Part shown: positions 16,321-49,459 of the stretch, piece by piece | Layout: each line of letters starts with the position of its first letter | Position numbering within the stretch: position 1 is the first letter of the stretch | DNA from: Escherichia coli | Lineage (GTDB): Bacteria > Pseudomonadota > Gammaproteobacteria > Enterobacterales > Enterobacteriaceae | NCBI RefSeq assembly: GCF_001677475.2 | Contig: NZ_CP015229.1 | Direction: 5' to 3' (one strand) | DNA: 64,000 nucleotides | Translations under genes and position numbers: made by a program | Notes under the pieces: generated by a model | What the model was told of the DNA's origin: nothing | The model's database searches: none | What the model saw: the letters and a program-made list of their open reading frames with translations, nothing else

Positions 16321-16340
16321 GTGCCTGAATTTTGGTCGTA

Positions 16341-16949: not shown

Positions 16950-17008
16950 CGTTAAACGTCCATGTATGAAAAAAGCGGCTGGTTAACTCCGCGCCGCTCT
17001 TTTCCGCT

Positions 17009-17514: not shown

Positions 17515-17543
17515 TAGATGTCCAGGTGTATTGACGTCCATTA
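17515..17543. promoter_or_regulatory. Tandem MetJ boxes in metJ-metB divergent control region
   Basis: agatgtcc / aggtgtat / tgacgtcc tandem 8-mers resembling AGACGTCT met-box consensus upstream of metB. Confidence 0.55.
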
Positions 17544-17602
17544 ACACAATGTTTACTCTGGTGCCTGACATTTCACCGACCAAGCCCAGGGAACTTCATC
17601 AC

Positions 17603-18763
17603 ATGACGCGTAAACAGGCCACCATCGCAGTGCGTAGCGGGTTAAATGACGACGAACAGTATGGTTGCGTTGTCCCGCCTATTCATCTTTCCAGCACCTA
17701 TAACTTTACCGGATTTAATGAACCACGCGCGCATGATTACTCGCGTCGCGGCAACCCAACGCGCGATGTGGTTCAGCGTGCGCTGGCAGAACTGGAAGGC
17801 GGTGCAGGTGCGGTGCTAACCAATACCGGCATGTCAGCTATTCACCTGGTCACGACTGTCTTTTTGAAACCCGGCGATCTGCTGGTTGCGCCGCACGACT
17901 GCTACGGCGGCAGCTATCGCCTGTTCGACAGCCTGGCGAAACGCGGTTGCTATCGCGTGTTGTTTGTTGATCAGGGCGATGAGCAGGCATTACGGGCGGC
18001 ACTGGCAGAAAAACCTAAACTGGTGCTGGTAGAAAGCCCAAGTAATCCATTGTTACGCGTCGTGGATATTGCGAAAATCTGCCATCTGGCAAGGGAAGTC
18101 GGGGCGGTGAGCGTGGTGGATAACACCTTCTTAAGCCCGGCATTACAAAATCCACTGGCATTAGGTGCCGATCTGGTGTTGCATTCATGTACGAAATATC
18201 TGAACGGTCACTCAGACGTGGTGGCGGGCGTGGTGATTGCTAAAGATCCAGATGTTGTCACCGAACTGGCCTGGTGGGCAAACAATATTGGCGTAACGGG
18301 CGGCGCGTTTGACAGCTATCTGCTGCTACGTGGGTTGCGAACGCTGGTGCCGCGTATGGAGCTGGCGCAGCGCAACGCGCAGGCGATTGTGAAATATCTG
18401 CAAACCCAGCCGTTGGTGAAAAAACTTTATCACCCATCGCTGCCGGAAAATCAGGGGCATGAAATTGCCGTGCGCCAGCAAAAAGGCTTTGGCGCAATGT
18501 TGAGTTTTGAGCTGGATGGCGATGAGCAAACGCTGCGTCGTTTCCTGGGAGGGCTGTCGTTGTTTACGCTGGCGGAATCGTTAGGGGGAGTGGAAAGTTT
18601 AATCTCTCACGCCGCAACCATGACACATGCAGGCATGGCGCCAGAAGCGCGTGCTGCCGCCGGGATCTCCGAGACGCTGTTGCGTATCTCCACCGGTATA
18701 GAAGATGGCGAAGATTTAATTGCCGACCTGGAAAATGGCTTCCGGGCTGCAAACAAGGGGTAA
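17603..18763 (+). CDS. metB: Cystathionine gamma-synthase (386 aa)
   Basis: MTRKQATIAVRSGLNDDEQYGCVVPPIHLSSTY; ATG at 17603; PLP-dependent fold. Confidence 0.95.
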   Translation: MTRKQATIAVRSGLNDDEQYGCVVPPIHLSSTYNFTGFNEPRAHDYSRRGNPTRDVVQRALAELEGGAGAVLTNTGMSAIHLVTTVFLKPGDLLVAPHDCYGGSYRLFDSLAKRGCYRVLFVDQGDEQALRAALAEKPKLVLVESPSNPLLRVVDIAKICHLAREVGAVSVVDNTFLSPALQNPLALGADLVLHSCTKYLNGHSDVVAGVVIAKDPDVVTELAWWANNIGVTGGAFDSYLLLRGLRTLVPRMELAQRNAQAIVKYLQTQPLVKKLYHPSLPENQGHEIAVRQQKGFGAMLSFELDGDEQTLRRFLGGLSLFTLAESLGGVESLISHAATMTHAGMAPEARAAAGISETLLRISTGIEDGEDLIADLENGFRAANKG

Positions 18764-18765
18764 AA

Positions 18766-21198
18766 ATGAGTGTGATTGCGCAGGCAGGGGCGAAAGGTCG
18801 TCAACTGCATAAATTTGGTGGCAGTAGTCTGGCTGATGTGAAGTGTTATTTGCGTGTCGCGGGCATTATGGCGGAGTACTCTCAGCCCGACGATATGATG
18901 GTGGTTTCCGCCGCCGGTAGCACCACTAACCAGTTGATTAACTGGTTGAAACTAAGCCAGACCGATCGTCTCTCTGCGCATCAGGTTCAACAAACGCTAC
19001 GTCGTTATCAATGCGATCTGATTAGCGGCCTGTTACCCGCTGAAGAAGCCGATAGCCTTATTAGCGCCTTTGTCAGCGATCTTGAACGCCTGGCGGCGCT
19101 ACTCGACAGCGGTATTAACGACGCGGTGTATGCGGAAGTGGTGGGCCACGGTGAAGTGTGGTCGGCGCGCCTGATGTCTGCGGTGCTTAACCAACAAGGG
19201 CTGTCAGCGGCCTGGCTTGATGCCCGCGAGTTTTTACGCGCTGAACGCGCTGCGCAACCGCAGGTTGATGAAGGGCTTTCTTACCCGTTGCTGCAACAGC
19301 TACTGGTACAACATCCGGGCAAACGTCTGGTGGTGACCGGGTTTATCAGCCGTAACAACGCCGGTGAAACGGTGCTGCTGGGGCGTAACGGTTCCGACTA
19401 TTCCGCGACACAAATCGGTGCGCTGGCGGGTGTTTCTCGTGTAACCATCTGGAGCGACGTCGCCGGGGTATACAGTGCCGACCCGCGTAAAGTGAAAGAT
19501 GCCTGTCTGCTGCCATTGCTGCGTCTGGATGAGGCCAGCGAACTGGCGCGTCTGGCGGCTCCCGTTCTTCACGCCCGTACTTTACAGCCGGTTTCTGGCA
19601 GCGAAATTGACCTGCAGCTGCGCTGTAGCTACACGCCGGATCAAGGTTCCACGCGCATTGAACGCGTGCTGGCCTCCGGTACTGGTGCGCGTATTGTCAC
19701 CAGCCACGATGATGTCTGTTTGATTGAGTTCCAGGTGCCCGCCAGTCAGGATTTCAAACTGGCGCATAAAGAGATCGACCAAATCCTGAAACGTGCCCAG
19801 GTGCGTCCACTGGCGGTTGGCGTGCATAACGATCGCCAGTTGCTGCAATTTTGCTACACCTCCGAAGTGGCCGACAGTGCGCTGAAAATCCTCGACGAAG
19901 CTGGATTACCTGGCGAACTGCGCCTGCGTCAGGGGCTGGCGCTGGTGGCGATGGTTGGGGCGGGCGTAACCCGTAACCCGCTGCATTGCCACCGCTTCTG
20001 GCAGCAACTGAAAGGCCAGCCGGTCGAATTTACCTGGCAGTCGGATGACGGCATCAGCCTGGTGGCAGTACTGCGCACCGGACCGACCGAAAGCCTGATT
20101 CAGGGGCTGCATCAGTCCGTCTTCCGCGCAGAAAAACGCATCGGCCTGGTATTGTTCGGCAAGGGCAATATCGGTTCCCGCTGGCTGGAACTGTTCGCCC
20201 GTGAGCAGAGCACGCTCTCGGCGCGTACCGGCTTTGAATTTGTGCTGGCAGGCGTGGTGGACAGCCGCCGCAGCCTGTTGAGCTATGACGGGCTGGACGC
20301 CAGCCGCGCGTTAGCCTTCTTCAACGATGAAGCGGTCGAGCAGGATGAAGAGTCGCTGTTCCTGTGGATGCGCGCCCATCCGTATGATGATTTAGTGGTG
20401 TTGGACGTTACCGCCAGCCAGCAGCTTGCTGATCAGTATCTCGATTTTGCCAGCCACGGTTTCCACGTCATCAGCGCCAACAAACTAGCAGGAGCCAGCG
20501 ACAGCAATAAATATCGCCAGATCCACGACGCCTTCGAAAAAACCGGGCGTCACTGGCTGTACAACGCCACCGTCGGTGTGGGCTTGCCGATCAACCATAC
20601 CGTGCGCGATCTGATCGACAGCGGCGATACTATTTTGTCGATCAGTGGGATCTTCTCCGGCACGCTCTCCTGGCTGTTCCTGCAATTCGACGGTAGCGTG
20701 CCGTTTACCGAGCTGGTGGATCAGGCGTGGCAGCAGGGCTTAACCGAGCCTGATCCGCGTGATGACCTTTCCGGCAAAGACGTGATGCGCAAGCTGGTGA
20801 TTCTGGCGCGTGAAGCGGGTTACGACATCGAACCAGATCAGGTGCGCGTGGAATCGCTGGTGCCTGCCCATTGCGAAGGCGGTAGCATCGACCATTTCTT
20901 TGAAAACGGCGATGAACTCAACGAGCAGATGTTGCAACGGCTGGAAGCGGCCCGCGAAATGGGGCTGGTGCTGCGCTACGTGGCGCGTTTCGATGCCAAT
21001 GGCAAAGCGCGTGTGGGCGTGGAAGCGGTGCGTGAAGACCATCCGCTGGCATCACTGCTGCCGTGCGATAACGTCTTTGCCATCGAAAGCCGCTGGTATC
21101 GCGATAACCCGCTGGTGATCCGTGGGCCAGGCGCAGGGCGGGATGTCACCGCCGGGGCGATTCAGTCGGATATTAATCGTCTGGCGCAGTTGTTGTAA
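18766..21198 (+). CDS. metL: Bifunctional aspartokinase II / homoserine dehydrogenase II (810 aa)
   Basis: ORF 810 aa starting 3 nt after metB stop; recognised as MetL. Confidence 0.95.
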   Translation: MSVIAQAGAKGRQLHKFGGSSLADVKCYLRVAGIMAEYSQPDDMMVVSAAGSTTNQLINWLKLSQTDRLSAHQVQQTLRRYQCDLISGLLPAEEADSLISAFVSDLERLAALLDSGINDAVYAEVVGHGEVWSARLMSAVLNQQGLSAAWLDAREFLRAERAAQPQVDEGLSYPLLQQLLVQHPGKRLVVTGFISRNNAGETVLLGRNGSDYSATQIGALAGVSRVTIWSDVAGVYSADPRKVKDACLLPLLRLDEASELARLAAPVLHARTLQPVSGSEIDLQLRCSYTPDQGSTRIERVLASGTGARIVTSHDDVCLIEFQVPASQDFKLAHKEIDQILKRAQVRPLAVGVHNDRQLLQFCYTSEVADSALKILDEAGLPGELRLRQGLALVAMVGAGVTRNPLHCHRFWQQLKGQPVEFTWQSDDGISLVAVLRTGPTESLIQGLHQSVFRAEKRIGLVLFGKGNIGSRWLELFAREQSTLSARTGFEFVLAGVVDSRRSLLSYDGLDASRALAFFNDEAVEQDEESLFLWMRAHPYDDLVVLDVTASQQLADQYLDFASHGFHVISANKLAGASDSNKYRQIHDAFEKTGRHWLYNATVGVGLPINHTVRDLIDSGDTILSISGIFSGTLSWLFLQFDGSVPFTELVDQAWQQGLTEPDPRDDLSGKDVMRKLVILAREAGYDIEPDQVRVESLVPAHCEGGSIDHFFENGDELNEQMLQRLEAAREMGLVLRYVARFDANGKARVGVEAVREDHPLASLLPCDNVFAIESRWYRDNPLVIRGPGAGRDVTAGAIQSDINRLAQLL

Positions 21199-24914: not shown

Positions 24915-25007
24915 TCTGACCTTCTTCAGCGACTGCCTTTCATGCAGTCGCTGAAGTTTCTTTACCGGCGTATAGTGTCCACAGGAAAACTACACACTGG
25001 ATCTCAC

Positions 25008-25446
25008 ATGTCTGCCGCAGGAAAGAGCAACCCACTGGCAATCAGTGGCCTGGTTGTGCTCACACTTATCTGGAGTTATAGCTGGATTTTCATGAAGCAA
25101 GTCACCAGCTACATCGGTGCCTTCGACTTCACCGCCTTACGCTGCATTTTCGGCGCTCTCGTTTTATTCATCGTCCTTTTATTACGTGGTCGCGGAATGC
25201 GCCCGACGCCGTTTAAATACACCTTAGCCATCGCCCTGTTACAAACCTGTGGGATGGTTGGCCTGGCGCAGTGGGCGCTGGTCAGCGGCGGAGCGGGGAA
25301 GGTGGCGATCCTGAGCTATACCATGCCGTTCTGGGTGGTGATTTTCGCCGCGTTGTTTCTCGGTGAACGCCTGCGACGTGGGCAATATTTCGCGATAATG
25401 ATTGCCGCTTTCGGCTTATTTTTGGTGTTGCAGCCGTGGCAACTCG
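25008..25446 (+). pseudogene. yijE: yijE 5' fragment (codons 1-146 of a 301-aa EamA/DMT transporter), truncated by IS insertion
   Basis: [22 protein letters not shown]...LVLQPWQL then frame enters the IS and stops after 1 codon; 146 + 155 native codons = 301, the K-12 YijE length. Confidence 0.85.
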
Positions 25447-25539
25447 TATGAGACGACAATAACTCAGTCCGCCTGGCGCCGATTATTCTGGCCGGTTTTG
25501 TAACCTGAGTGTCATTTACATGATCCAACAGGAAATGGC

Positions 25540-27039
25540 GTGACGCTCAATACTTCTCAGGTCAGTTACTATATGACTCAGCGTAAGAAAGGTATAACTC
25601 AGCATATCTCGGCCATGAAGGCTGGTATCTCAGTCCGTTCTGGTCGTCGGATCGAAAAAGGAGAGTGGGCAAAAAACAGTGTTCGGCACTGGCGCACACG
25701 CAAAGATCCTCTGGAAGCTGTGTGGGACAGCATGCTTGTTCCTCTGTTGAAAGAGAGGCCGGCTCTGACACCAACAACTCTACTGGAGATGCTACAGGAT
25801 AAATATCCCGGCCAGTACCCCAACAGCCTTCGAAGAACAATGCAACGGCGGGTTCGCGAATGGAAACTACAGTATGGTACAGAGCAGGAGGTCATGTTCC
25901 GCCAGCAACATCAGCCCGGCCTGCGAGGCCTGTCGGACTTTACTGAACTGAAAGGTGTAGTTGTCACCATCGCCGGTAAGTTGTTGGCGCATAAGTTGTA
26001 TCACTTCCGTCTGGAATGGAGCCACTGGAGCTGGATGCGGGTTGTTCTGGGTGGTGAGAGCTTCTCTGCTCTGGCTGAAGGCCTGCAGGAAGCCCTCGGA
26101 CAACTGGGCGGAGTGCCGGTAGAACATAAAACGGACAGCCTGAGGGCAGCATGGAAACAACAGGGCGAAGATGGACGCCGCGAGCTGACTGAGCGTTATG
26201 CTACTCTCTGTCAGCACTACGGAATGCAGGGCGTACACAATAATGCCGGTCGGGGCCACGAAAATGGCTCGGTTGAAAGTGCCCACGGACATCTGAAAAG
26301 GCGTATCTGTCAGGCGCTGATACTGCGGGGCAGTAACGACTTCAGCACCATAGAAGAATATCAGGCCTTCATCACTCAGCAGGTTATGCGGCACAACCGT
26401 AACAATCAGGATCTGGTCAAGGAAGAACGTCTTCATCTGAAACCGCTGCCGCTTCGTCGCAGTGCTGACTATGATGAGCTGACTGTGAGGGTTAGTCGCA
26501 GCAGTACCATCAATGTGAAGCACGTCGTCTACAGCGTACCTTCCCGGCTTGTAGGTCAACTGTTACGGGTCAGGTTATGGGACGATCGTCTGAGCTGTTA
26601 CGTTGGCAGCAGCGAGGTCATGAGCTGCCCTCGCGTCAGACCAGAAAAAGGGAAGACGCGGGCCCGTCGTATCGACTTCCGACATGTGATCGACAGTCTG
26701 GCAAAAAAGCCCGGTGCGTTCTGCCATGCAACGCTGAGAAATGACATCCTGCCGGACGATGAATGGCGGAGGCTGTGGCGTCGCTTATGTAATCATCTGG
26801 AGCCCGATATGGCAGGAAGGCTGATGGTACATGCCCTGAAACTGGCTGCAGGATACGACGATATCTCAGTCGTGGCAAAAGGTATGGAGCAGATGCTGAA
26901 TACCCCGGGAAACGTGGATCTGCACCGGCTGATGCGCTTCCTGGGTATAAAAGAAAAGGCGTTGCCGGTAGTCAATGTGATACAGCATAACCTGAGCAGT
27001 TATGAGCAACTACTGCGTGGCAAGGGAGGTTCGCAGTGA
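25540..27039 (+). CDS. istA: IS21-family transposase IstA (up to 499 aa; start uncertain, GTG at 25540 or ATG at 25573)
   Basis: N-terminal HTH-like region, central DDE-type integrase-like region, C-terminal extension; followed by overlapping istB. Confidence 0.8.
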   Translation: MTLNTSQVSYYMTQRKKGITQHISAMKAGISVRSGRRIEKGEWAKNSVRHWRTRKDPLEAVWDSMLVPLLKERPALTPTTLLEMLQDKYPGQYPNSLRRTMQRRVREWKLQYGTEQEVMFRQQHQPGLRGLSDFTELKGVVVTIAGKLLAHKLYHFRLEWSHWSWMRVVLGGESFSALAEGLQEALGQLGGVPVEHKTDSLRAAWKQQGEDGRRELTERYATLCQHYGMQGVHNNAGRGHENGSVESAHGHLKRRICQALILRGSNDFSTIEEYQAFITQQVMRHNRNNQDLVKEERLHLKPLPLRRSADYDELTVRVSRSSTINVKHVVYSVPSRLVGQLLRVRLWDDRLSCYVGSSEVMSCPRVRPEKGKTRARRIDFRHVIDSLAKKPGAFCHATLRNDILPDDEWRRLWRRLCNHLEPDMAGRLMVHALKLAAGYDDISVVAKGMEQMLNTPGNVDLHRLMRFLGIKEKALPVVNVIQHNLSSYEQLLRGKGGSQ

Positions 27040-27791
27040 GCAATATCCATCACCTTGAACATAGCCTGCGTAAACTACGCCTGACACGAGTTGGAGCTGA
27101 ATGGCACGCTCTGGAAAAACGAGCGCTGGCAGAAGGCTGGACACCATCGCGCTATCTTCTGACGCTATGCAATGAAGAACTCCTGTGGCGCGAGAGTGAA
27201 AAACTGCGTCGTTATAAAAAGGAGGCCCGGTTGCCAGTTGCCAAAACGCTGAGCGAATACGACTTCAGTCAGGTGCCGGAACTGAATGGAGCTCAGTTCC
27301 GGCAACTCTGTGAAACGACAGACTGGGTTGATGCAGGAGAAAACGTTCTGCTGTTCGGAGCCAGCGGGTTGGGGAAAAGCCATCTGGCGGCAGCGATCGT
27401 GGATGGCGTAGTAGGTCAGGGCTACCGGGCCCGGTTCTACAGCGCAGGAGAGCTGTTGCAGGAACTACGTAAAGCCAGAGCTCAGTTGAAACTGAATGAG
27501 CTGCTACTGAAACTGGATCGCTACCGGGTGATAGTGGTGGATGATCTTGGCTATGTAAAACGCGATAGTGCCGAAACGGGTGTGCTGTTCGAGTTAATAG
27601 CGCATCGCTATGAACGTGGGAGCCTGGTGATAACCAGTAACCATCCGTTCAGCATGTGGGGCAGCATCTTCGTGGATGAGACTATGGCGGTGGCTGCGGC
27701 AGACAGGCTGATCCATCACGGATATATGTTCGAACTGAAAGGGGAAAGCTACAGGAAAAAGACAGCGAAGGCAGTAACAAGCGCGACTTGA
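27036..27791 (+). CDS. istB: IS21-family helper ATPase IstB (251 aa, GTG start overlapping istA stop)
   Basis: Walker A GASGLGKSH and Walker B VIVVDDLGY (AAA+/DnaC-like); GGAGG RBS at 27025-27029; GTG at 27036 overlaps TGA of istA. Confidence 0.85.
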   Translation: MSNIHHLEHSLRKLRLTRVGAEWHALEKRALAEGWTPSRYLLTLCNEELLWRESEKLRRYKKEARLPVAKTLSEYDFSQVPELNGAQFRQLCETTDWVDAGENVLLFGASGLGKSHLAAAIVDGVVGQGYRARFYSAGELLQELRKARAQLKLNELLLKLDRYRVIVVDDLGYVKRDSAETGVLFELIAHRYERGSLVITSNHPFSMWGSIFVDETMAVAAADRLIHHGYMFELKGESYRKKTAKAVTSAT

Positions 27792-27856
27792 TGTCGCCCT
27801 GAAGGGTGCGGCCAGTATAGTTGGCGCGAGTCGGCAAAACTAGTTGACGTCTAATA

Positions 27857-28329
27857 AACTCGATTTTTCTTCGATGAAAAGTGCCATGCTGGCAATCCTC
27901 TCCGGTGTTAGTTGGGGGGCGAGCGCGATTGTTGCTAAACGTCTGTATGCCCGTCATCCGCGCGTGGATTTATTGTCGTTAACATCCTGGCAGATGCTCT
28001 ATGCGGCGCTGGTGATGAGTGTGGTCGCTTTACTGGTGCCGCAACGTGAAATTGACTGGCAGCCCACCGTGTTCTGGGCGCTGGCCTACAGTGCGATTCT
28101 GGCGACGGCGCTGGCGTGGAGCTTATGGCTGTTTGTGCTGAAAAACTTGCCTGCCAGTATTGCCAGCTTAAGCACACTGGCCGTTCCCGTTTGCGGCGTA
28201 CTCTTTTCCTGGTGGCTGCTCGGTGAGAATCCGGGGGCCGTTGAAGGTAGCGGTATTGTGCTGATTGTGCTGGCACTGGCGCTGGTGAGCCGTAAGAAAA
28301 AAGAAGCCGTCAGTGTAAAAAGGATCTGA
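27857..28329 (+). pseudogene. yijE: yijE 3' fragment (codons 147-301), separated from the 5' fragment by the IS
   Basis: Frame [20 protein letters not shown]...[10 protein letters not shown] continues the EamA-domain transporter; first two codons derive from the target-site duplication. Confidence 0.85.
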
Positions 28330-29098: not shown

Positions 29099-29245
29099 CA
29101 GAGTGCCGGATGCGGCGTGAACGCCTTATCTGGCCTAAAAAGAAAGCAAATTCAATATATTGCAGAGATTGCGTAGGCCTGATAAGCGTAGCGCATCAGG
29201 CAATTTTGCGTTCAAACTCCCGGACAAGCCGGGAGTTTGGAGTAG
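29099..29245. repeat. BIME-like cluster of REP palindromes between yijF and gldA
   Basis: tgccggatgcggcgtgaacgccttatctggcc and gtaggcctgataagcgtagcgcatcaggc (REP consensus), plus hairpin aaactcccggacaagccgggagttt. Confidence 0.7.
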
Positions 29246-29246: not shown

Positions 29247-30350
29247 TTATTCGTACTCTTGCAGGAAACGCTGACCGTACTGGTCGGCTACCAGCAGTGC
29301 GGCGTAAACCTGATCTGGCGTCGCGCCGCCAGGCATGTTGTGAATGGTTTCACCTTCTGCACATGCCGCTTCTGCCACAATTCGCATTTTCGCCGGGACA
29401 TCTTCTTTAATATCCAGTTGAGCGAGAGTTATTGGCAAACCTACCGCATGGCTAAGTGCAGCTACGGTTTCGATTTCCTCAACCGGCGCGTTTTCCAGTA
29501 CCAGCTGCGTCAGCGTACCAAATGCCACTTTTTCACCGTGGTAATAGTGATGCGCGTCCGGGATAGCGGTCAGGCCGTTATGCACCGCGTGAGCCGCCGC
29601 CAGCCCGCCGCTTTCAAAACCAACGCCGCTCAAATAGGTGTTCGCTTCAATCACGCGCTCCAGCGCCGGAGTCACTACATGCTGTTCGGCGGCAAGCATC
29701 GCTTTTTCGCCTTCTTCCAGTAGGGTGTTGTAGCACAGTTCAGCCAGTGCCAGCGCCGCTTGGGTGCACTTGCCGCCCGCCATGGTGGTCGCGCCGCTAC
29801 GAGAGCAGGCACGCGCTTCAAACCAGGTTGCCAGCGCATCGCCGATACCCGCCGCTAACAGACGTGCAGGTGCGCCAGCGACGATTTTGGTGTCGACAAT
29901 GACCATATTCGGGTTATTTGGCAGCATCAGATAGCGGTCAAATTCACCATCATCGGTGTAGATAACAGACAATGCGCTGCACGGTGCGTCGGTAGAGGCG
30001 ATAGTCGGTGCGATCGCTACCGGAACACCCATGAAATGTGCCAGTGCTTTGGCAGTATCGAGAGTTTTTCCGCCACCGATACCGAGAATTGCGCCACACT
30101 GCGCAGTCTCCGCGATGCCACGCAGACGGTCGATCTCATTTTGCGAACATTCACCGCCAAACGGCGCAATTTCTACTACCAGTCCAGCATCTTTAAAGCT
30201 TTTCTCGACAGTGGATTGAGCAAAACCTAAAACAAATTTGTCACCCACCACTAACCAGCGTTCTGCCAGCGGCTTCAGGTATTCGCCCAGACGATTAATC
30301 ACATCAGCGCCCTGGATGTATTTACCCGGTGATTGAATAATGCGGTCCAT
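29247..30350 (-). CDS. gldA: Glycerol dehydrogenase (367 aa)
   Basis: [24 protein letters not shown]...; iron-type alcohol dehydrogenase family; canonical start at codon 14 of ORF-track frame. Confidence 0.93.
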
Positions 30351-30360
30351 AATTGCTCCT

Positions 30361-31023
30361 TTAGAGATGAGTAGTGCCAAATGCGGCATTCCAGTCGTGT
30401 TCGAACTTCTCTATAGCTGACTCTACCGCAGGGGTGTTGAGCATTTGTTGCGCTACATCTAAGGGCAGGGTGATGGATTCACATCCTGCCAGTAAACAGT
30501 CCAGCGCCTGACGCGGCGTTTTAAAGCTGGCCGCCAGCACCATGCTTTCTGGTGCGTGCATTTCCAACAGCGCTTGCAGCTCATGAACCGTACGAATGCC
30601 GTCTCCGCCCTGGGCGTCTACGCGGTTAACATACGGAGCAACGTATTTTGCCCCTGCCAGTGCGGCTAATAACCCTTGTGCGGCGCTATATACAGCGGTG
30701 CCAAGTGTAGTAATACCCTCTTTTTTCAGCATCTTAATGGCGGCCAGACCTTCGGAAGTCACCGGGATTTTCACCACAATACCCGGAATGGCGTCGCGCA
30801 GGCGCTTCGCTTCTTCCACCATCCCCTGCGCGTCGCGGCTCATGGTCTGAGCAAACAGAATGCCCTCATCACCAATCGCTTTTTGCAGACGCGGCAGCAC
30901 TTCCCAGATGGACTCCTTGCTGGCAGCGATAATGCTCGGGTTAGTTGTCACCCCGGCAATGGGGAATATGCGTGCCAGACGTTCGACTTCTGCGACGTTA
31001 GCGGTGTCCAGATACAGTTCCAT
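30361..31023 (-). CDS. fsaB: Fructose-6-phosphate aldolase 2 (220 aa)
   Basis: [32 protein letters not shown]; transaldolase-like fold. Confidence 0.93.
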
Positions 31024-31034
31024 GATGTTTCCTT

Positions 31035-33536
31035 TTACAGTTCCAGTTCATGTTGCAGCAGGCTGGCGATAGCGTCGGCAGAGGCGGCGTTAACCAGCGC
31101 GTTACGGAATTCTTCGTGCATAATGCGACGAGCGAGGCGCGAGAAAATGCGCATATGCTGATCGCCCGCAGCGTGTTTGTTCAGGGTTAACATGATGATG
31201 AATTGCGCTTCATCATCGCCCCAGCGCACCGGCGCTTGCAGACGCGCCACGCTGATGGTGGATTGCTCAATATGTTCTGATTTGCTGTGTGGAATGGCAA
31301 AACTAAAGCCCAGACCGGTAGAGAAAACGGCCTCGCGCGCCCACAAGTCGGCTTCCAGTTTACGCGGATAGCGGCAGCGCCCTGCCAGCAGCAGGTTATC
31401 GGTCATGCCTTTGAGCACTTCTTCTTTGCTGCGCCAGTCGCTTTCCAGCGTGATGCACTCGGCGGTGACCAGTGGTGCGTCCTGTTGGGTCATGCGGAAT
31501 TGCGCCAGCAGATGTTCCACTTCCAGCGAAGTACGGCAGGCCATTGCCTGGTTGAGCAACTGGCGGCACTCACGGCTATCAAGTTGCGCCATTCGCGCTT
31601 TCGCCGCCGGAATTGACGGTGCGCTCATGCTGAGTTCATCCAGCCCTAAACCGACCAGTAACGGCAGCACGGAACCTTTCGCTCCCAGTTCACCGCACAG
31701 ACCAATCCATTTCCCCTGGCGATGCACCGCCTGCACGGCGTAATCGAGCGCCCGCAAGAAGGCCGGATTCAGGCTGTTGTAGTGACGAGTAACCTTAGCG
31801 TTATCGCGATCCACTGCCAGCAGATATTGCGTCAGGTCATTACTACCAATACTAAAGAAATCAATCTCTTCGCAGCATTGATCGATGATGAACATCACCG
31901 ACGGCACTTCCAGCATAATGCCGAGCTGGATCTTCTCATCAAACGGAATGTGTTCGTTACGTAGTTGCTGTTTGGCTTCTGCCAGTTTTTCTTTCACCCA
32001 TAAGATCTCTTCCATTGAGGAGATCATCGGGATCATGATTTTCAGGCTGCCGTGAGCGGAGGCGCGCAGGATCGAGCGTAGTTGTGTGGTAAATAACGAC
32101 GCGTATTCTTCATAAATACGCACCGCGCGATAACCGAGGAACGGGTTAGCTTCTGCCGGAATGTTCAGATAATCAACGGGTTTGTCACCGCCAATGTCCA
32201 TAGTGCGCACAATAATGCTGCGTCCGTTGGCGGACTCCAGCGCCTGACAAAAAATGTTGTACAGCTCGCTTTCGCCCGGTGCGCTGGTGCGATCCATATA
32301 GAGCATTTCAGTGCGGAACAAACCAACGCCTTCCGCACCATTGCCGAATGCGGCCTGCGCTTCCACGGAGTGAGCGATGTTAGCGGCAATTTCAATGCGG
32401 ATACCGTCAGCGGTACGGGCTTGTTGGGTCAGCCAGACACGCTGTTGCTCACGCAGGGCGTCCTGTACGCGGGCTTCCTGCTGATAATAACGAGCTACGG
32501 CTTCCCCTGGCTCAACCACAATCGCCCCAGCGTTGCCGTCGATATAAATCGTTTGATGCTGCCACGGAGTGAGGGCATCAATATCCACACCAACCAGCGT
32601 CGGAATGTTGAACGAACGGGCAAGGATCACCGTATGTGAGGTGGTGCCGCCGCTTTTGAGCAACAATCCTTTGAGGTGATTTTTATCCAATTCGAGGAAC
32701 TGGCTGGGGGTCAGTTCATCAGCCATACAAATGGCGGGCTGCGTCAGTTTGCCCGGTGCCGGGAAGCGTTGCTCACCGTAGATTTGCTGGAGTAACTGGA
32801 AGCAGACGTCGCGTACGTCCAGGGCGCGTTCTTGCAGGTAGCTGCTGCTGGAACGGGCGAACTCTTCGCAGAAGTGGTGTGCACTGGCGACAATCGCTTC
32901 GGCACAGCTTAATCCCTCGCTGACGCCTGCCAGTAAGTGCTGACGTAAAGAAGTATCGCCAGCCAGGGATCGGTGAGCTTCCAGTATCGCGCTGGTAGCA
33001 CCGTCGCTATCCAGCAGACGAAATTCAATGTTTTTCATCACCAGTGTCAGGCCGTTTTCCAGCGCGGATTGCTCGGCGTCAACGTCTTTGGCTGCGGGAA
33101 GATTACCCAGCGCATTGAGATCTAAAGAAGAGATCGGCGTCAGAATGCCGCCTGCGCTACCGCTGCACACGGTGCGGGCGCGGATAATTTGCGGATTCAG
33201 ATTGGTCAGTGAAACCGGCAGTGGTTCCAGTTCGTCAGATTTTACTTCCGCCAGCGGTGCGTCGCAGTGGGGGAATTCATCGCGCAGCCATTGGCTTAAA
33301 CGCTGGTGCGCTTCCTGTTCGTCGGCCCCGGAAATCAGTAACTGGCAGTTATCGCCCACCAGCGTATCGGTGCCAATCAGCGCAAGGGCGCTTTTGGCGT
33401 TGCCCTTGCGGTCAGTGCGCAGGTTATGCCACTCAATTTGTGATGAAAAAGTATTACACAGCGTTTCAACGTGGCTTGCCGGACGCGCATGTACGCCGTT
33501 AGGTAGCTCACAAATAAATTCCACAATCAGGGCCAT
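31035..33536 (-). CDS. ptsA: Multidomain PTS protein (HPr-like / Enzyme I-like / EIIA-Fru-like), 833 aa
   Basis: ORF 833 aa; N-terminal HPr-like GVHARPAS, central PEP-utilising enzyme region, C-terminal EIIA-like region. Confidence 0.9.
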
Positions 33537-33844
33537 TGCCTCTCTCCCGGTACGGTTTTCTGTTTACAGGATAAGAGCGCATGGCAACGACCTGCCATGT
33601 GACAAATCTGCCAAAAGCTGGACAAATGTAATGTAACCGCCAATTTGCGACGCGTCTCACAAGACGCCGTTTTGCGGCATGCTTCCGGATTATCGCAAGT
33701 TATGAGGCGGATCGCATTTTTGTACTGATATTACAAAAGTCCAGTAAATGGCCTTTTTATCCACTGTTTGCTCCGCCTGCGATTGCCTATTGTTTCCTCC
33801 ATCAAAAATATGGACATGGGCTTTCGCAAGCCCGGGAGCAGCTT

Positions 33845-34924
33845 ATGAATGAGTTGGTGCAGATCCTGAAAAATACCCGTCAGCATTTAATGACGGGCGT
33901 TTCACACATGATTCCCTTCGTGGTATCGGGCGGTATTTTGCTGGCGGTTTCCGTCATGTTGTATGGCAAAGGCGCAGTGCCGGATGCCGTAGCCGATCCG
34001 AATCTGAAAAAACTGTTTGATATCGGCGTTGCGGGTTTGACGCTGATGGTGCCTTTCCTCGCCGCTTACATTGGTTACTCCATTGCAGAGCGTTCTGCGC
34101 TGGCTCCGTGCGCTATCGGTGCCTGGGTCGGCAACAGCTTTGGTGCGGGTTTCTTTGGTGCGCTGATCGCCGGGATTATCGGCGGCATCGTGGTGCATTA
34201 TCTGAAGAAAATTCCGGTGCATAAAGTTCTGCGCTCGGTGATGCCCATCTTCATCATTCCTATCGTCGGCACACTGATTACCGCAGGCATCATGATGTGG
34301 GGCTTGGGCGAGCCTGTAGGGGCGTTGACCAACAGCCTGACTCAGTGGCTACAGGGGATGCAGCAGGGCAGCATTGTTATGCTGGCGGTGATCATGGGGC
34401 TGATGCTGGCGTTCGATATGGGCGGTCCGGTTAACAAAGTGGCCTATGCCTTCATGCTGATTTGCGTTGCTCAGGGTGTTTATACCGTGGTGGCTATTGC
34501 CGCTGTTGGGATTTGTGTTCCACCGCTGGGCATGGGGCTGGCGACGCTGATTGGTCGTAGAAATTTCTCCGCAGAAGAGCGCGAAACCGGTAAAGCAGCG
34601 CTAGTGATGGGGTGCGTTGGGGTTACTGAAGGGGCGATTCCTTTCGCCGCTGCCGATCCGCTGCGTGTTATTCCTTCCATCATGGTCGGTTCAGTTTGTG
34701 GTGCAGTAACTGCGGCGCTGGTCGGTGCGCAGTGCTATGCAGGCTGGGGTGGTCTGATTGTGCTGCCGGTGGTTGAAGGTAAGTTGGGTTATATCGCGGC
34801 AGTGGCTGTCGGGGCGGTTGTGACGGCAGTCTGCGTGAACGTGCTGAAAAGTCTGGCGCGTAAAAATGGGTCTTCGACTGATGAAAAAGAAGACGACCTG
34901 GATTTGGATTTTGAAATTAATTAA
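33845..34924 (+). CDS. frwC: PTS fructose-like EIIC permease (359 aa)
   Basis: ORF 359 aa polytopic membrane protein; K-12 synteny. Confidence 0.9.
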   Translation: MNELVQILKNTRQHLMTGVSHMIPFVVSGGILLAVSVMLYGKGAVPDAVADPNLKKLFDIGVAGLTLMVPFLAAYIGYSIAERSALAPCAIGAWVGNSFGAGFFGALIAGIIGGIVVHYLKKIPVHKVLRSVMPIFIIPIVGTLITAGIMMWGLGEPVGALTNSLTQWLQGMQQGSIVMLAVIMGLMLAFDMGGPVNKVAYAFMLICVAQGVYTVVAIAAVGICVPPLGMGLATLIGRRNFSAEERETGKAALVMGCVGVTEGAIPFAAADPLRVIPSIMVGSVCGAVTAALVGAQCYAGWGGLIVLPVVEGKLGYIAAVAVGAVVTAVCVNVLKSLARKNGSSTDEKEDDLDLDFEIN

Positions 34925-34938
34925 TTGAGGAACGAGCC

Positions 34939-35259
34939 ATGACGAAAATTATTGCAGTAACCGCGTGTCCATCTGGTGTTGCCCATACCTATATGGCGGC
35001 AGAGGCGCTGGAAAGTGCCGCGAAAGCGAAAGGCTGGGAAGTGAAAGTAGAAACCCAGGGCTCGATTGGTCTGGAAAATGAACTGACTGCGGAAGACGTG
35101 GCGAGCGCCGATATGGTGATTCTGACCAAAGATATCGGCATCAAGTTTGAAGAGCGTTTTGCTGGCAAGACCATCGTGCGCGTCAACATCAGCGACGCGG
35201 TAAAACGCGCTGATGCCATTATGAGCAAAATTGAAGCTCACCTGGCACAAACCGCTTAA
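34939..35259 (+). CDS. frwB: PTS fructose-like EIIB component (106 aa)
   Basis: MTKIIAVTACPSGVAHTYMAAEAL; active-site Cys motif of EIIB-Fru type. Confidence 0.9.
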   Translation: MTKIIAVTACPSGVAHTYMAAEALESAAKAKGWEVKVETQGSIGLENELTAEDVASADMVILTKDIGIKFEERFAGKTIVRVNISDAVKRADAIMSKIEAHLAQTA

Positions 35260-35267
35260 GTTCTTAT

Positions 35268-35292
35268 CCCGCCCGTAAGGGCGGGTTCGCTT
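35268..35292 (+). terminator. Possible hairpin/attenuator between frwB and pflD
   Basis: cccgcccgtaagggcggg hairpin followed by a T-containing tract; weak U-run. Confidence 0.35.
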
Positions 35293-35309
35293 TCCCACAG
35301 GAGTTCCTC

Positions 35310-37607
35310 ATGACGAATCGTATCTCTCGCCTCAAAACTGCACTGTTTGCCAATACCCGTGAAATCTCGCTGGAGCGGGCGCTGCTTTATACCGCCAGCC
35401 ATAAGCAAACCGAAGGCGAACCGGTGATTATTCGTCGGGCAAAAGCCACGGCGTATATCCTTGAACATGTTGAAATTTCGATTCGTGATGAAGAACTGAT
35501 TGCTGGTAACCGCACCGTAAAACCTCGCGCCGGGATTATGTCGCCGGAAATGGATCCTTACTGGTTGCTGAAAGAGCTGGAGCAATTCCCGACGCGACCG
35601 CAGGATCGCTTTGCTATCAGTGAAGAAGATAAACGTATCTACCGCGAAGAGTTGTTCCCGTACTGGGAAAAACGTTCGATGAAAGATTTCATCAACGGGC
35701 AGATGACGGATGAAGTAAAAGCCGCAACCAGCACGCAGATTTTCAGCATCAACCAGACGGATAAAGGCCAGGGGCACATTATTATTGATTACCCACGCCT
35801 GTTGAATCACGGGCTGGGGGAGCTGGTGGCACAGATGCAGCAACATTGTCAGCAACAGCCGGAGAATCACTTTTATCAGGCCGCGCTGTTACTGCTGGAA
35901 GCTTCACAAAAACACATTTTGCGTTACGCCGAACTGGCAGAAACGATGGCGGCAAACTGCACCGATGCCCAGCGTCGCGACGAATTGCTGACTATTGCGG
36001 AGATCTCCCGCCATAACGCGCAACATAAGCCGCAGACGTTCTGGCAGGCGTGCCAGTTATTCTGGTACATGAACATCATTCTGCAATACGAATCCAACGC
36101 CAGTTCGCTGTCGTTAGGGCGCTTCGACCAGTATATGTTGCCGTTCTATCAGACATCATTAACCCAGGGCGAAGACCCGGCGTTCCTGAAAGAACTGCTC
36201 GAATCTTTATGGGTGAAGTGCAACGACATCGTGCTGTTACGCTCCACCAGCAGCGCGCGCTATTTCGCAGGTTTCCCGACCGGCTATACCGCGCTGCTCG
36301 GCGGTTTAACGGAAAACGGACGTAGTGCGGTGAACGTGCTTTCGTTCCTCTGCCTCGACGCCTATCAAAGCGTGCAATTACCGCAACCGAACCTGGGCGT
36401 GCGCACTAACGCCTTGATCGACACGCCGTTCCTGATGAAAACCGCAGAAACCATTCGCCTCGGCACCGGTATTCCGCAAATCTTTAACGATGAAGTGGTG
36501 GTGCCAGCGTTCCTCAACCGTGGCGTTTCGCTGGAAGATGCGCGCGACTATTCAGTAGTGGGCTGTGTGGAATTATCTATTCCCGGCAGAACCTACGGCT
36601 TGCATGACATCGCGATGTTTAACCTGCTGAAAGTGATGGAAATCTGCCTGCATGAAAATGAAGGCAATGCTGCGCTGACTTATGAAGGTTTACTGGAGCA
36701 GATCCGCGCCAAGATCAGCCACTACATCACCCTGATGGTTGAGGGCAGCAATATTTGCGATATCGGTCACCGTGACTGGGCACCTGTACCGCTGCTCTCA
36801 TCGTTTATCAGCGATTGTCTGGAAAAAGGCCGCGATATTACCGATGGCGGTGCGCGTTATAACTTCTCCGGCGTACAGGGGATCGGTATCGCCAACCTGA
36901 GCGATTCTCTCCATGCGTTGAAAGGTATGGTTTTTGAGCAACAGCGTTTAAGTTTTGACGAATTGCTGTCGGTATTAAAAGCCAACTTTGCAACGCCAGA
37001 AGGCGAAAAAGTCCGCGCTCGCTTAATTAACCGCTTTGAGAAATACGGTAACGATATCGACGAGGTGGATAACATTAGCGCCGAACTGTTGCGCCACTAC
37101 TGCAAAGAAGTGGAAAAATACCAGAACCCGCGCGGCGGCTACTTCACGCCGGGATCGTATACCGTTTCTGCTCACGTCCCGTTGGGATCGGTGGTTGGCG
37201 CGACGCCAGACGGTCGTTTTGCCGGGGAACAACTGGCAGACGGCGGCTTGTCACCTATGCTGGGTCAGGACGCACAAGGGCCAACGGCGGTACTGAAGTC
37301 AGTCAGTAAGCTCGATAATACGCTGCTGTCTAACGGTACGTTGCTGAACGTGAAATTCACTCCGGCGACCCTGGAAGGTGAAGCGGGATTACGCAAACTG
37401 GCCGACTTCTTACGGGCGTTTACCCAGCTTAAGTTGCAGCATATTCAGTTTAACGTGGTGAACGCCGACACGTTGCGGGAAGCGCAACAGCGCCCACAAG
37501 ATTATGCCGGGCTGGTGGTGCGCGTTGCCGGATACAGCGCCTTCTTTGTCGAATTGTCGAAGGAGATCCAGGATGACATCATCCGCCGGACAGCGCATCA
37601 GCTGTAA
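35310..37607 (+). CDS. pflD: Glycyl-radical enzyme, pyruvate formate-lyase paralogue (765 aa)
   Basis: ORF 765 aa; C-terminal glycyl radical motif VRVAGYSAFF. Confidence 0.93.
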   Translation: MTNRISRLKTALFANTREISLERALLYTASHKQTEGEPVIIRRAKATAYILEHVEISIRDEELIAGNRTVKPRAGIMSPEMDPYWLLKELEQFPTRPQDRFAISEEDKRIYREELFPYWEKRSMKDFINGQMTDEVKAATSTQIFSINQTDKGQGHIIIDYPRLLNHGLGELVAQMQQHCQQQPENHFYQAALLLLEASQKHILRYAELAETMAANCTDAQRRDELLTIAEISRHNAQHKPQTFWQACQLFWYMNIILQYESNASSLSLGRFDQYMLPFYQTSLTQGEDPAFLKELLESLWVKCNDIVLLRSTSSARYFAGFPTGYTALLGGLTENGRSAVNVLSFLCLDAYQSVQLPQPNLGVRTNALIDTPFLMKTAETIRLGTGIPQIFNDEVVVPAFLNRGVSLEDARDYSVVGCVELSIPGRTYGLHDIAMFNLLKVMEICLHENEGNAALTYEGLLEQIRAKISHYITLMVEGSNICDIGHRDWAPVPLLSSFISDCLEKGRDITDGGARYNFSGVQGIGIANLSDSLHALKGMVFEQQRLSFDELLSVLKANFATPEGEKVRARLINRFEKYGNDIDEVDNISAELLRHYCKEVEKYQNPRGGYFTPGSYTVSAHVPLGSVVGATPDGRFAGEQLADGGLSPMLGQDAQGPTAVLKSVSKLDNTLLSNGTLLNVKFTPATLEGEAGLRKLADFLRAFTQLKLQHIQFNVVNADTLREAQQRPQDYAGLVVRVAGYSAFFVELSKEIQDDIIRRTAHQL

Positions 37608-38451
37608 CGTTGTGGAAACGCGCCGCAATGATGTGGCGCGCATTTTCAACATTCAGCGTTATTCACTGAATGACGGCGAGGGCATTCGTACGGTGGTCTT
37701 TTTTAAAGGCTGTCCGCATCTTTGCCCATGGTGTGCTAATCCGGAGTCGATCTCCGGCAAAATCCAGACGGTACGCAGAGAGGCGAAATGTCTGCACTGT
37801 GCGAAATGTTTGCGTGATGCGGATGAATGCCCGTCCGGGGCGTTTGAACGGATTGGTCGCGATATCAGCCTTGACGCGCTGGAGCGGGAAGTGATGAAAG
37901 ATGACATTTTCTTTCGCACGTCCGGCGGCGGCGTCACGCTTTCTGGCGGCGAAGTGTTAATGCAGGCGGAGTTTGCGACCCGTTTTTTACAGCGACTTCG
38001 GCTGTGGGGGGTGTCATGCGCCATTGAAACTGCCGGAGACGCGCCAACCAGCAAGTTGTTACCGCTGGCGAAATTGTGCGATGAAGTGTTGTTCGATTTA
38101 AAAATTATGGACGTAACTCAGGCGCGGGATGTGGTGAAGATGAACCTGCCACGCGTGCTGGAGAATTTGCGTTTGCTGGTGAGTGAGGGTGTCAACGTGA
38201 TCCCGCGTTTACCGCTGATCCCTGGTTTCACGCTCAGCCGGGAGAATATGCAGCAGGCGCTGGACGTGCTGATCCCGCTGAATATCAGGCAGATCCATCT
38301 GTTACCGTTTCATCAGTACGGCGAACCAAAATACCGCCTGCTGGGGAAAACATGGTCGATGAAAGAGGTTGCTGCGCCGTCGTCAGCCGATGTGGCAACG
38401 ATGCGCGAAATGGCAGAACGGGCCGGATTTCAGGTTACCGTGGGAGGTTAA
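37573..38451 (+). CDS. pflC: Glycyl-radical enzyme activating protein, radical SAM (292 aa)
   Basis: CPHLCPWCANPE radical-SAM Cys cluster; start ATG 37573 overlaps pflD 3' end by 35 nt. Confidence 0.9.
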   Translation: MTSSAGQRISCNVVETRRNDVARIFNIQRYSLNDGEGIRTVVFFKGCPHLCPWCANPESISGKIQTVRREAKCLHCAKCLRDADECPSGAFERIGRDISLDALEREVMKDDIFFRTSGGGVTLSGGEVLMQAEFATRFLQRLRLWGVSCAIETAGDAPTSKLLPLAKLCDEVLFDLKIMDVTQARDVVKMNLPRVLENLRLLVSEGVNVIPRLPLIPGFTLSRENMQQALDVLIPLNIRQIHLLPFHQYGEPKYRLLGKTWSMKEVAAPSSADVATMREMAERAGFQVTVGG

Positions 38452-38452
38452 A

Positions 38453-38794
38453 ATGGCATATCTGGTGGCAGTAACCGCCTGCGTAAGCGGCGTGGCGCAT
38501 ACTTATATGGCGGCGGAACGGCTGGAAAAGTTGTGCCAGTTAGAGAAGTGGGGCGTCAGCATTGAAACTCAGGGCGCGCTGGGAACGGAGAATCGTTTAG
38601 CGGACGAGGATATCCGCCGGGCGGATGTTGCGCTGCTGATTACGGATATCGAGCTTGCCGGTGCCGAGCGATTTGAACATTGCCGCTACGTGCAATGCAG
38701 CATCTACGCTTTCCTGCGTGAGCCGCAGCGGGTGATGAGCGCGGTACGCAAAGTGCTTTCTGCGCCGCAGCAAACCCATCTTATTCTGGAGTAG
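38453..38794 (+). CDS. frwD: PTS fructose-like EIIB component 2 (113 aa)
   Basis: MAYLVAVTACVSGVAHTYMAAERL; ATG 38453 two nt after pflC stop. Confidence 0.88.
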   Translation: MAYLVAVTACVSGVAHTYMAAERLEKLCQLEKWGVSIETQGALGTENRLADEDIRRADVALLITDIELAGAERFEHCRYVQCSIYAFLREPQRVMSAVRKVLSAPQQTHLILE

Positions 38795-39632
38795 TCGGTT
38801 TTTCTGTCAGTTGGCTGTGGTACTGCCGACGATATTCCGACGGTGAGCGTTCGGTATTTTTACGAAACAGACGGCAGAAGTAGTTGCTGTCGACAAAGCC
38901 GCAGGCGTGCGCCACTTCTTTTACCTTCAGGTCATAGCCTTTCAATAACGTCTTAGCGTGCTCCAGTCGCGTGTGATTCAGGTATTCGTTAAAACCAATG
39001 GCCCCCGTTTTTTGAAACAGGTGCGAGAGGTAATTTGGCGAAATATAGAATGCCTGTGCGACAGATTCGCGGGTAAGCGCGGAGGCATAGCGTTCGTCGA
39101 TATAATCACGAATAGCTTCGAACAGTGCCTGGCTGCGTGAGGCGGTCTGGATTTGGCTGCCAAGCAAATCGCGGCAGTGGCTAAGCAGGCTGGCGACGAT
39201 AAGCCTTGCCGTTTGCTGCTCTTGCGACTGCATTTGCATTTCATTGAGCGTTTGTAGCAGAAAAGAACCAATGCGCGGGCCGCGTCGGGCGACGTGTTGC
39301 TTCGCCAGATTTTGATATTGTTTGCCATCCCATTGCACGACGCTGAAGCCGAGTTGCTGTTTGCCAAACAGCACGCTAAAGGTAGTGGCGGGGGCTTGCC
39401 ATTGTGGAAAATTCCAGCCACCAGCGGGAACGTACAGCACATCGCCGGGAACTAACGTTGCTCCAGCGCCGGTATCAACAAACTCACCTTCCAGCACAAT
39501 TTCCAGCCGTGGAAAATCGACCTGATACGCGAGATCGGGGACCGGACCGTTGCTGCTGGCAAAGTAAATCTGGCGCAGGGACAGCGGGCCGTTGATCAGG
39601 CGGGAGAGCAGATAGCTGACGTCGTGATACAT
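38781..39632 (-). CDS. yijO: AraC/XylS-family transcriptional regulator (283 aa)
   Basis: ORF 283 aa with C-terminal AraC-type HTH; K-12 synteny. Confidence 0.85.
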   Translation of the reverse strand: MYHDVSYLLSRLINGPLSLRQIYFASSNGPVPDLAYQVDFPRLEIVLEGEFVDTGAGATLVPGDVLYVPAGGWNFPQWQAPATTFSVLFGKQQLGFSVVQWDGKQYQNLAKQHVARRGPRIGSFLLQTLNEMQMQSQEQQTARLIVASLLSHCRDLLGSQIQTASRSQALFEAIRDYIDERYASALTRESVAQAFYISPNYLSHLFQKTGAIGFNEYLNHTRLEHAKTLLKGYDLKVKEVAHACGFVDSNYFCRLFRKNTERSPSEYRRQYHSQLTEKPTTPE

Positions 39633-49339: not shown

Positions 49340-49459
49340 GGCAAAAAAAAGCGGATCCTGGAGATCCGCAAAAGTTCACGTTGGCTTTAGTTATTCGAGT
49401 TGAGAAACTCTCGAAACGGGCAGTGACTTCAAGGGTTAAAAGAGGTGCCGCTCCGTTTC
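49340..49459 (-). ncRNA. oxyS: OxyS small regulatory RNA (oxidative-stress sRNA)
   Basis: Minus-strand sequence GAAACGGAGCGGCACCUCUUUUAACCCUUGAAGUCACUGCCCGUUUCGAGAG...GCGGAUCUCCAGGAUCCGCUUUUUUUUGCC matches OxyS as recalled; terminal hairpin plus U8; divergent from oxyR. Confidence 0.9.

Follow-up and report, generated by a model that had tools for sequence, protein, structure and literature searches.

The gldA-fsaB-ptsA / frwCB-pflDC-frwD locus of Escherichia coli encodes, side by side, the components of a sugar phosphotransferase system (PTS), a glycyl radical enzyme (GRE) with its activase, a class I aldolase and a glycerol dehydrogenase. The locus occupies positions 29247–38794 of a 64,000-nucleotide stretch of contig NZ_CP015229.1 (RefSeq assembly GCF_001677475.2), which was analysed as a whole and is referred to below as the window. 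An initial annotation, made from the sequence alone, described the two divergent gene clusters as an intact but functionally uncharacterised module and stated that the substrate of the GRE, PflD, and of the Frw PTS was unknown. This statement has been overtaken, because the literature gives a defined substrate, published in 2024 and summarised in a section of a review (PMC12441222), and structures have been solved. The locus is an already known system, intact and ordinary, and it is highly likely that it encodes the route by which E. coli uses 1,5-anhydromannitol (AM) anaerobically, a variant of glycolysis that proceeds by radical chemistry; this capacity is predicted for the present strain.

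The chemistry of PflD is described in section 5.1 of that review, where the work of Ma et al. 2024 (J Am Chem Soc 146:26187, doi 10.1021/jacs.4c07718) is summarised. According to this section, 1,5-anhydroglucitol and 1,5-anhydromannitol are phosphorylated by a PTS, and E. coli PflD cleaves 1,5-anhydromannitol-6-phosphate to 1-deoxyfructose-6-phosphate, while its paralogue YbiW acts on 1,5-anhydroglucitol-6-phosphate and forms the same product (PMC12441222). Both are said there to be oxygen-sensitive glycyl-radical reactions that sustain anaerobic growth; on uptake, the section has the words ‘via a PTS’ and does not name the PTS itself. Another paper, which also cites Ma et al. 2024, counts YbiW and PflD among the GREs of E. 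coli.

The PflD protein encoded in the window can be equated with the enzyme studied. It is 99.1% identical to PDB entry 8yjo, deposited as ‘Probable dehydratase PflD’, over residues 1–765, with seven conservative substitutions; further PDB entries exist for YbiW (8id7 and 8yjn) and for a homologue from Streptococcus dysgalactiae (8id0). PF02901, the PFL-like Pfam domain, spans residues 1–626, PF01228 (Gly_radical) lies towards the C-terminus at residues 645–747, and its score against TIGR01774, the PFL2/glycerol-dehydratase subfamily, is 1349 bits at a cut-off of 678. The motif VRVAGYSAFF that the initial annotation had pointed out was found at residues 737–746, with RVAGYS at 738–743 and the radical-bearing Gly741 within it, and VGCVE at residues 417–421, a G-C-x-E loop of the kind usual in dehydratase/lyase GREs, supplies Cys419 and Glu421. 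All three residues are invariant in an alignment of nine sequences from Proteobacteria and Firmicutes. The activase PflC carries the CX3CX2C motif C47-x3-C51-x2-C54, followed by C73-x2-C76-x2-C79...C86.

Among characterised enzymes, B12-independent glycerol dehydratase (1r8w), CutC, HypD and propanediol dehydratase share with PflD the TIGR01774 fold family, the glycine and Cys-x-Glu loops and a dedicated radical-SAM (S-adenosylmethionine) activase. PflD differs from these PFL2-family enzymes, following the relevant section of PMC12441222, in acting on a phosphorylated cyclic polyol and in opening its ring by C-O cleavage, in place of 1,2-diol dehydration or C-N cleavage. By the same account, the YbiW-YbiY-FsaA system belongs to the same enzyme class and arrives at the same product. 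YbiW itself is a distant paralogue (482 bits, versus 1728 for PflD), acts on the C2 epimer and is encoded outside the window. We take the YbiW system, as placed on the K-12 map, to combine likewise a GRE with an activase and an aldolase of the fructose-6-phosphate aldolase (FSA) type.

The proposed pathway would begin with PtsA, which would pass phosphate from phosphoenolpyruvate (PEP) via FrwB and/or FrwD to the sugar entering through FrwC, giving AM-6-phosphate. PflC would install the glycyl radical on Gly741 of PflD, where a thiyl radical on Cys419 and Glu421 as the base would bring about the C-O cleavage that opens the ring and yields 1-deoxyfructose-6-phosphate. FsaB, through its Schiff-base residue Lys85, would split this compound into glyceraldehyde-3-phosphate, which would enter glycolysis, and hydroxyacetone, and GldA would reduce the latter with NADH to 1,2-propanediol. 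The divergent ptsA and frwC promoters would be controlled by CRP and probably also by the adjacent regulator YijO, for which we infer such a role. In the abstract of Ma and colleagues, FsaA or FsaB is reportedly the enzyme that splits the PflD product into glyceraldehyde-3-phosphate and hydroxyacetone, and GldA is said to reduce hydroxyacetone to 1,2-propanediol; hydroxyacetone is a known donor substrate of FSA. The steps assigned to FsaB and GldA are proposed from this account together with known enzyme chemistry, and they agree with the NCBIfam name of GldA, ‘bifunctional L-1,2-propanediol dehydrogenase/glycerol dehydrogenase’. That Frw and PtsA constitute the PTS for AM is suggested by gene linkage. 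The pathway published in 2024 accounts for PflD, FsaB and GldA, formerly puzzling, and amounts to a fermentation of anhydro-sugars to 1,2-propanediol by enterobacteria of the gut; in 2019, what FsaA does physiologically and what purpose the gldA-fsaB-ptsA operon serves were still called unclear (PMC6643234).

All genes required by this scheme are present and intact in the window (Table 1). Their coordinates were taken from the list of open reading frames (ORFs) in the window and from the annotation that RefSeq gives for the best-matching E. coli, and each product gave an end-to-end NCBIfam equivalog match with a score over the curated cut-off; the gene identities put forward in the initial annotation are confirmed by all three sources. 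The longest gldA ORF reaches position 30389, and the start giving a 367-aa protein agrees with the extent of the equivalog. FsaB scores 350 bits against TIGR00875 (cut-off 246) and contains Lys85 in the sequence VVKIP, this lysine being established as the Schiff-base residue from the crystal structure of FSA. PtsA does combine EI, HPr and EIIA, as had been noted, and Pfam gives the actual order as HPr - EI - EIIA: PTS-HPr (residues 7–84), PEP-utilisers_N (123–237), PEP-utilizers (266–337), PEP-utilizers_C (363–653) and PTS_EIIA_2 (690–829). The phosphorelay set of this PTS of the fructose-mannitol family, made up of EI, HPr, EIIA, EIIB and EIIC, is complete, with the phosphorylation sites of PtsA, His16 (GVHARP), His301 (GGTTSHT) and His750 (AIPH), and Cys10 of both FrwB and FrwD in place.

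Intactness of the frames, likewise claimed at the outset, was upheld by comparison with E. coli RM14516, relative to which no gene has an internal stop or a change in length; GldA differs by one amino acid. So was the 35-nt overlap of pflD and pflC, which lies at 37573–37607 with the annotated pflC start and is retained in most other genera (in one example, pflC starts at 12264 and pflD stops at 12298). The sole indel within the locus is a duplication of AATT (34915–34918) at the frwC stop, also seen in comparison with the nearest complete E. coli genome; it is silent, turning TGA into TAA and leaving the protein unaltered, and makes the frwC-frwB spacer 14 nt long instead of 10. The ratio of nonsynonymous to synonymous substitution rates (dN/dS) relative to the closest E. 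coli was 0–0.18 across all nine genes, with a value of 0.027 for gldA, and all genes of the locus are under strong purifying selection. Covered over at least 80% of its length, the locus was found in 5393 of 5426 complete E. coli genomes. What the window adds is that a somewhat divergent strain of the E. coli group retains the entire module intact.

Table 1. Genes, putative control elements and RNA features located in the window (aa, amino acids)
Feature	Position	Strand	Description	Basis
gldA	29247–30350	-	NAD-dependent glycerol / L-1,2-propanediol dehydrogenase, 367 aa	NCBIfam NF047954 equivalog, 752 bits (cut-off 700), residues 1–365/365
fsaB	30361–31023	-	fructose-6-phosphate-aldolase-type class I aldolase, 220 aa	NCBIfam TIGR00875 and NF009296, full length
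ptsA	31035–33536	-	fused HPr - Enzyme I - EIIA (fructose type) phosphorelay protein, 833 aa	Pfam domains
box-L	33613–33632	-	putative degenerate inverted copy of the box, facing ptsA	block conserved in 19 genera
CRP-like site 1	33646–33661		TGCGACGCGTCTCACA, 1 mismatch to TGTGA-N6-TCACA	consensus match only
CRP site 2	33701–33716		TATGAGGCGGATCGCA, reverse complement of TGCGATCCGCCTCATA	block conserved across genera
box-R	33731–33768	+	TTACAAAAGTCCAGTAAATG (33731–33750) and second half-site TTATCCACTGT, ~114 nt upstream of frwC	candidate YijO operator
frwC	33845–34924	+	PTS EIIC permease, fructose family, 359 aa	NCBIfam NF007787 equivalog, 719 bits, 1–359/359
frwB	34939–35259	+	PTS EIIB, 106 aa, Cys10 in CPSGVAHT	NCBIfam NF007783 equivalog, 1–106/106
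frwB-pflD intercistronic hairpin	35268–35285	+	CCCGCCC-GTAA-GGGCGGG	terminator scan; centroid fold -16.4 kcal/mol
pflD	35310–37607	+	GRE, 765 aa, assigned 1,5-anhydromannitol-6-phosphate ring-opening lyase	match to PDB 8yjo; section of PMC12441222
pflC	37573–38451	+	radical-SAM activase of PflD, 292 aa	NCBIfam NF007483 equivalog, 1–292/292
frwD	38453–38794	+	second PTS EIIB, 113 aa, Cys10 in CVSGVAHT	NCBIfam NF007747 equivalog
yijO	38781–39632	-	AraC-family regulator, 283 aa	Pfam HTH_18 192–270, HTH_AraC 233–269
ClpQY (hslVU) promoter element	11340–11397		expected RNA feature	
L31 leader	16009–16061		expected RNA feature	
OxyS	49350–49459		expected RNA feature	
cobalamin riboswitch	57077–57266		expected RNA feature, upstream of btuB	
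rrn operon	60352–64000		16S, tRNA-Glu (61979–62054), start of 23S	

The conservation of gene linkage was assessed in a scan of one genome per species, queried with the window proteins, which yielded 80 loci from Enterobacterales, Orbaceae, Pasteurellaceae and Vibrio with PflD identities of 75–100%; some of the gene absences among these loci were caused by contig ends. The activase gene pflC lies next to pflD in 77 loci; the PTS genes frwB and frwD and a yijO-like AraC gene are present in 74 each, frwC in 72 and ptsA in 71. The aldolase gene fsaB was found in 61 loci and gldA in 41, and the flanking genes eptC and yijF in 20 and 3, respectively. Across these loci the GRE keeps company with its activase, the Frw PTS, PtsA, FsaB and YijO, and the flanking genes vary; the co-occurrence of pflDC with the frw genes was a point raised in the initial annotation. 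In Edwardsiella tarda, a block consisting of fsaB-ptsA, frwCB-pflDC-frwD and yijO is situated between unrelated genes in another chromosomal context, and the unit therefore moves as a whole, yijO included. Exceptions are three Kluyvera loci, one from a further Enterobacteriaceae isolate and one from Edwardsiella piscicida, in which pflDC is accompanied by a YijO-like AraC gene with no frw, ptsA or fsaB genes nearby (loci around 9876–14990). In the one of these PTS-less loci that is annotated, the neighbours of pflDC are hyp and haem-uptake genes.

The same association reaches beyond the Proteobacteria. The GRE of the Streptococcus dysgalactiae system represented by 8id0 is about 61% identical to PflD, and its gene belongs to a single operon of the order EIIA-EIIB-EIIC-GRE-activase-TAL_FSA-Fe-ADH, in which the PTS components, activase, FSA-type aldolase and iron-dependent alcohol dehydrogenase all recur; it differs from the E. 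coli locus in that all genes are co-directional and the fused PtsA, the second EIIB, the AraC regulator and the 20-nt box described below are lacking. In Bacillus sp. HMF5848 the order is EIIC...EIIA-EIIB-GRE-activase-TAL_FSA-HPr-EI, and in Clostridium sp. cel8 it is GRE-activase-TAL_FSA; in Streptococcus, Clostridium, Bacillus and Xylocopilactobacillus, the gene for the PflD homologue has a TAL_FSA gene as its neighbour. These data agree with the published pathway, from which a PTS, a radical enzyme and an FSA-type aldolase would be expected to be linked.

The locus of Clostridium sp. cel8 (9001–20298) contains two adjacent GREs, one of them PflD-like (765 aa) with an activase, TAL_FSA and a GFO/IDH/MocA oxidoreductase, and the other 801 aa long and accompanied by a separate activase and a PTS of the mannose type; the two may represent the anhydromannitol and anhydroglucitol branches in one locus. 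As to more distant relatives of PflD, a search of representatives at 50% identity fell straight from the PflD cluster to ≤47%; one relative at 47% is encoded on a 3.8-kb contig with no informative neighbours. A PflD relative of 908 aa in an ENA metagenome is 97% identical with 69% query coverage in the best local alignment, and scores 2027 bits versus 1728 for the full-length 99%-identical cluster, which suggests an internal duplication or an assembly artefact.

An older annotation sees PflD as a second pyruvate formate-lyase (PFL) and Frw/PtsA as a PTS for anaerobic fructose catabolism. Its traces persist in the names used by RefSeq and NCBIfam, ‘formate C-acetyltransferase’ for PflD and ‘[formate-C-acetyltransferase]-activating enzyme’ for PflC, as well as in the placement of the Frw proteins in the fructose PTS family, and earlier work cited in PMC6643234 connects PtsA with a putative PTS that would serve the anaerobic catabolism of fructose. 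Nevertheless, PflD reaches only 121 bits against the PFL equivalog TIGR01255, far under the cut-off of 994, and, 8yjo apart, the solved structures closest to it are of dehydratase/lyase-type GREs, that of glycerol dehydratase (1r8w) matching with 649 bits compared with 118 for that of PFL (1h16); because of these scores PflD, despite its database name, is on sequence grounds not a pyruvate formate-lyase. The name chosen by the PDB depositors, the anhydromannitol-6-phosphate reaction reported in the cited section of PMC12441222, and the FSA-type aldolase, which PFL chemistry does not need and which is linked to the GRE in Proteobacteria and Firmicutes alike, also speak against this annotation, and we regard it as very improbable. 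A less remote, though still unlikely, alternative holds that gldA-fsaB-ptsA is a separate module for dihydroxyacetone (DHA) and glycerol, in which fructose-6-phosphate is interconverted with DHA and glyceraldehyde-3-phosphate, DHA is converted to glycerol, and frw-pflDC is merely a neighbour. FsaB and GldA do act on DHA, and their overexpression restores fast growth on this compound, but the wild-type level of expression is low under aerobic conditions, and DHA does not induce the genes (PMC6643234). The absence of gldA from about half of the PflD loci fits a separate module, whereas the frequent linkage of fsaB to pflD in the 80 loci, its membership of the GRE operon in Streptococcus and Bacillus and its position next to the GRE gene in Clostridium do not, and a single conserved control region, with paired boxes and CRP sites, is common to both divergent operons.

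Finally, the locus could be a cryptic, decaying remnant without current function in this strain. The historical label ‘cryptic’, repeated in the initial annotation, the low aerobic expression in the laboratory (PMC6643234) and an insertion sequence about 1.4 kb away, in yijE, might be taken in this sense. Set against them are the intact frames, the low dN/dS values, the retention of all catalytic residues and the presence of the locus in 99% of complete E. coli genomes and, beyond them, in Enterobacterales, Orbaceae, Pasteurellaceae and Vibrio. With a module conserved across orders, the label is unsupported, and the probability of a remnant is close to nil.

Some observations also weigh against AM catabolism as the function of the locus. 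For the proposed steps of FsaB and GldA, as for assigning Frw to AM, the basis is a one-paragraph review summary and what the abstract of Ma and colleagues reportedly states. The same section of the review terms 1,5-anhydromannitol a ‘non-physiological polyol’ in mammals (PMC12441222), so its natural source in the gut is uncertain. Only 41 of the 80 loci have gldA linked to pflD, five loci combine pflDC and the AraC gene with neither the PTS nor the aldolase nearby, and FsaB and GldA use DHA as well (PMC6643234). Since 1,5-anhydromannitol has no known abundant source in the gut, the physiological substrate of Frw and PflD may be broader than, or other than, the one assayed.

The region between ptsA and frwC, 308 nt long in the window and 301–316 nt across Enterobacteriaceae, contains four blocks conserved in an alignment of 19 genera. 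CRP-like site 1 is one of just two sites with at most one mismatch to the consensus in the 64-kb window, and it is retained in other genera as GTGAGA-N5-CTCACA. CRP site 2 corresponds, on the opposite strand, to TGCGATCCGCCTCATA, the CRP site identified for ptsA/frwC by chromatin immunoprecipitation sequencing in enterotoxigenic E. coli (ETEC) H10407 (PMC4287617).

The two CRP sites are flanked by box-L and box-R. The half-sites of box-R, TCCAGT and TCCACT, are spaced by 21 bp, and box-R is the sole match with ≤4 mismatches in the whole window. It occurs at the same position, with ≤3 mismatches, in nearly all of the gammaproteobacterial loci, and loci without frw genes have the box roughly 108 nt upstream of pflD itself, with 4 mismatches in the Kluyvera type and 2 in Edwardsiella piscicida. 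The Firmicute loci examined carry regulators of the DeoR type and lack this conserved 20-nt box. Box-L matches the reverse complement of box-R at 13 of 20 positions and was not returned together with it as an inverted repeat by a repeat search; its support comes mainly from conservation across genera, and in Klebsiella, Enterobacter and Vibrio loci a minus-strand copy is ≤4 mismatches from the box-R sequence. Two direct half-sites two helical turns apart, the proximal one beside the -35 element, are the usual layout of AraC-family activators. Since the half-site spacing and the proximity to the likely -35 element fit this layout, we infer that the boxes are a candidate operator for YijO. The box and the gene for the YijO-like regulator co-vary across genomes, even where pflDC has no PTS, and YijO is probably the regulator of the pathway. 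That it acts specifically as an activator responsive to the anhydro-sugar, through TTACAAAAGTCCAGTAAATG, its second half-site and box-L, is a more detailed proposal to which we give about an even chance. In 2022, the function of YijO was listed as unknown (PMC9308461), and no published operator, function or binding data for it were found in a literature search. In Yersinia pekkanenii, a second copy of the box with 4 mismatches lies on the minus strand at about 15348, downstream of the yijO-like gene, and could be either another target or a chance match.

A simple scan for sigma-70 promoters made no call between ptsA and frwC, and over the entire locus promoter-like sites were less numerous than in shuffled sequence; conservation was the only basis for the -10 and -35 elements suggested here. 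FNR-like (TTGAT-N4-ATCAA, ≤2 mismatches), ArcA-like and Cra-like sites were absent from the intergenic regions; therefore, anaerobic control is not visible at the consensus level.

Two further features could influence expression within and downstream of the frw-pflDC operon. A G+C hairpin lies between frwB and pflD, and many genera have a hairpin in this place, its stem differing in sequence and a T-run often coming after it; some Citrobacter genomes have longer repeat-like palindromes instead, and Rahnella lacks it. Its role may be that of a partial terminator or of an mRNA stabiliser, by which the transporter-to-enzyme ratio would be set. At the end of the operon, frwD and yijO converge with a tail-to-tail overlap of 14 nt (38781–38794), leaving no space for terminators, and the pair is on a list of candidate excludons (PMC12288877). 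The remaining regulatory questions, which concern YijO, the box, the two EIIBs and the hairpin, are of interest mainly to specialists in PTS and GREs and for the engineering of 1,2-propanediol production.

The corresponding locus of E. coli K-12 (b3945–b3953) has the same gene order, orientation, gene lengths and 35-nt pflD/pflC overlap, and the window as a whole is syntenic with the K-12 map from hslUV to rrnB. The best identity found among the 5426 complete E. coli genomes was 97.7% for the locus and 98.6% for ppc-argECBH; nucleotide divergence from the nearest complete E. coli genome is thus about 2.3%. Loci of the non-coli Escherichia type, a set that includes E. coli E69, are 91–95% identical to the window. 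In comparison with E. coli RM14516, a REP-like (repetitive extragenic palindromic) sequence of about 57 nt is missing in the yijF-gldA spacer (29146–29206).

Upstream of the locus, the cystine-transporter gene yijE is interrupted by ISEc10, a member of the IS21 family, at 25447–27856, with istA at 25540–27039 and istB at 27036–27791. The terminal inverted repeats of the element are TATGAGACG and TATTAGACG, the 6-bp target duplication is AACTCG, and yijE is split into ORF pieces at 24942–25451 and 27844–28329.

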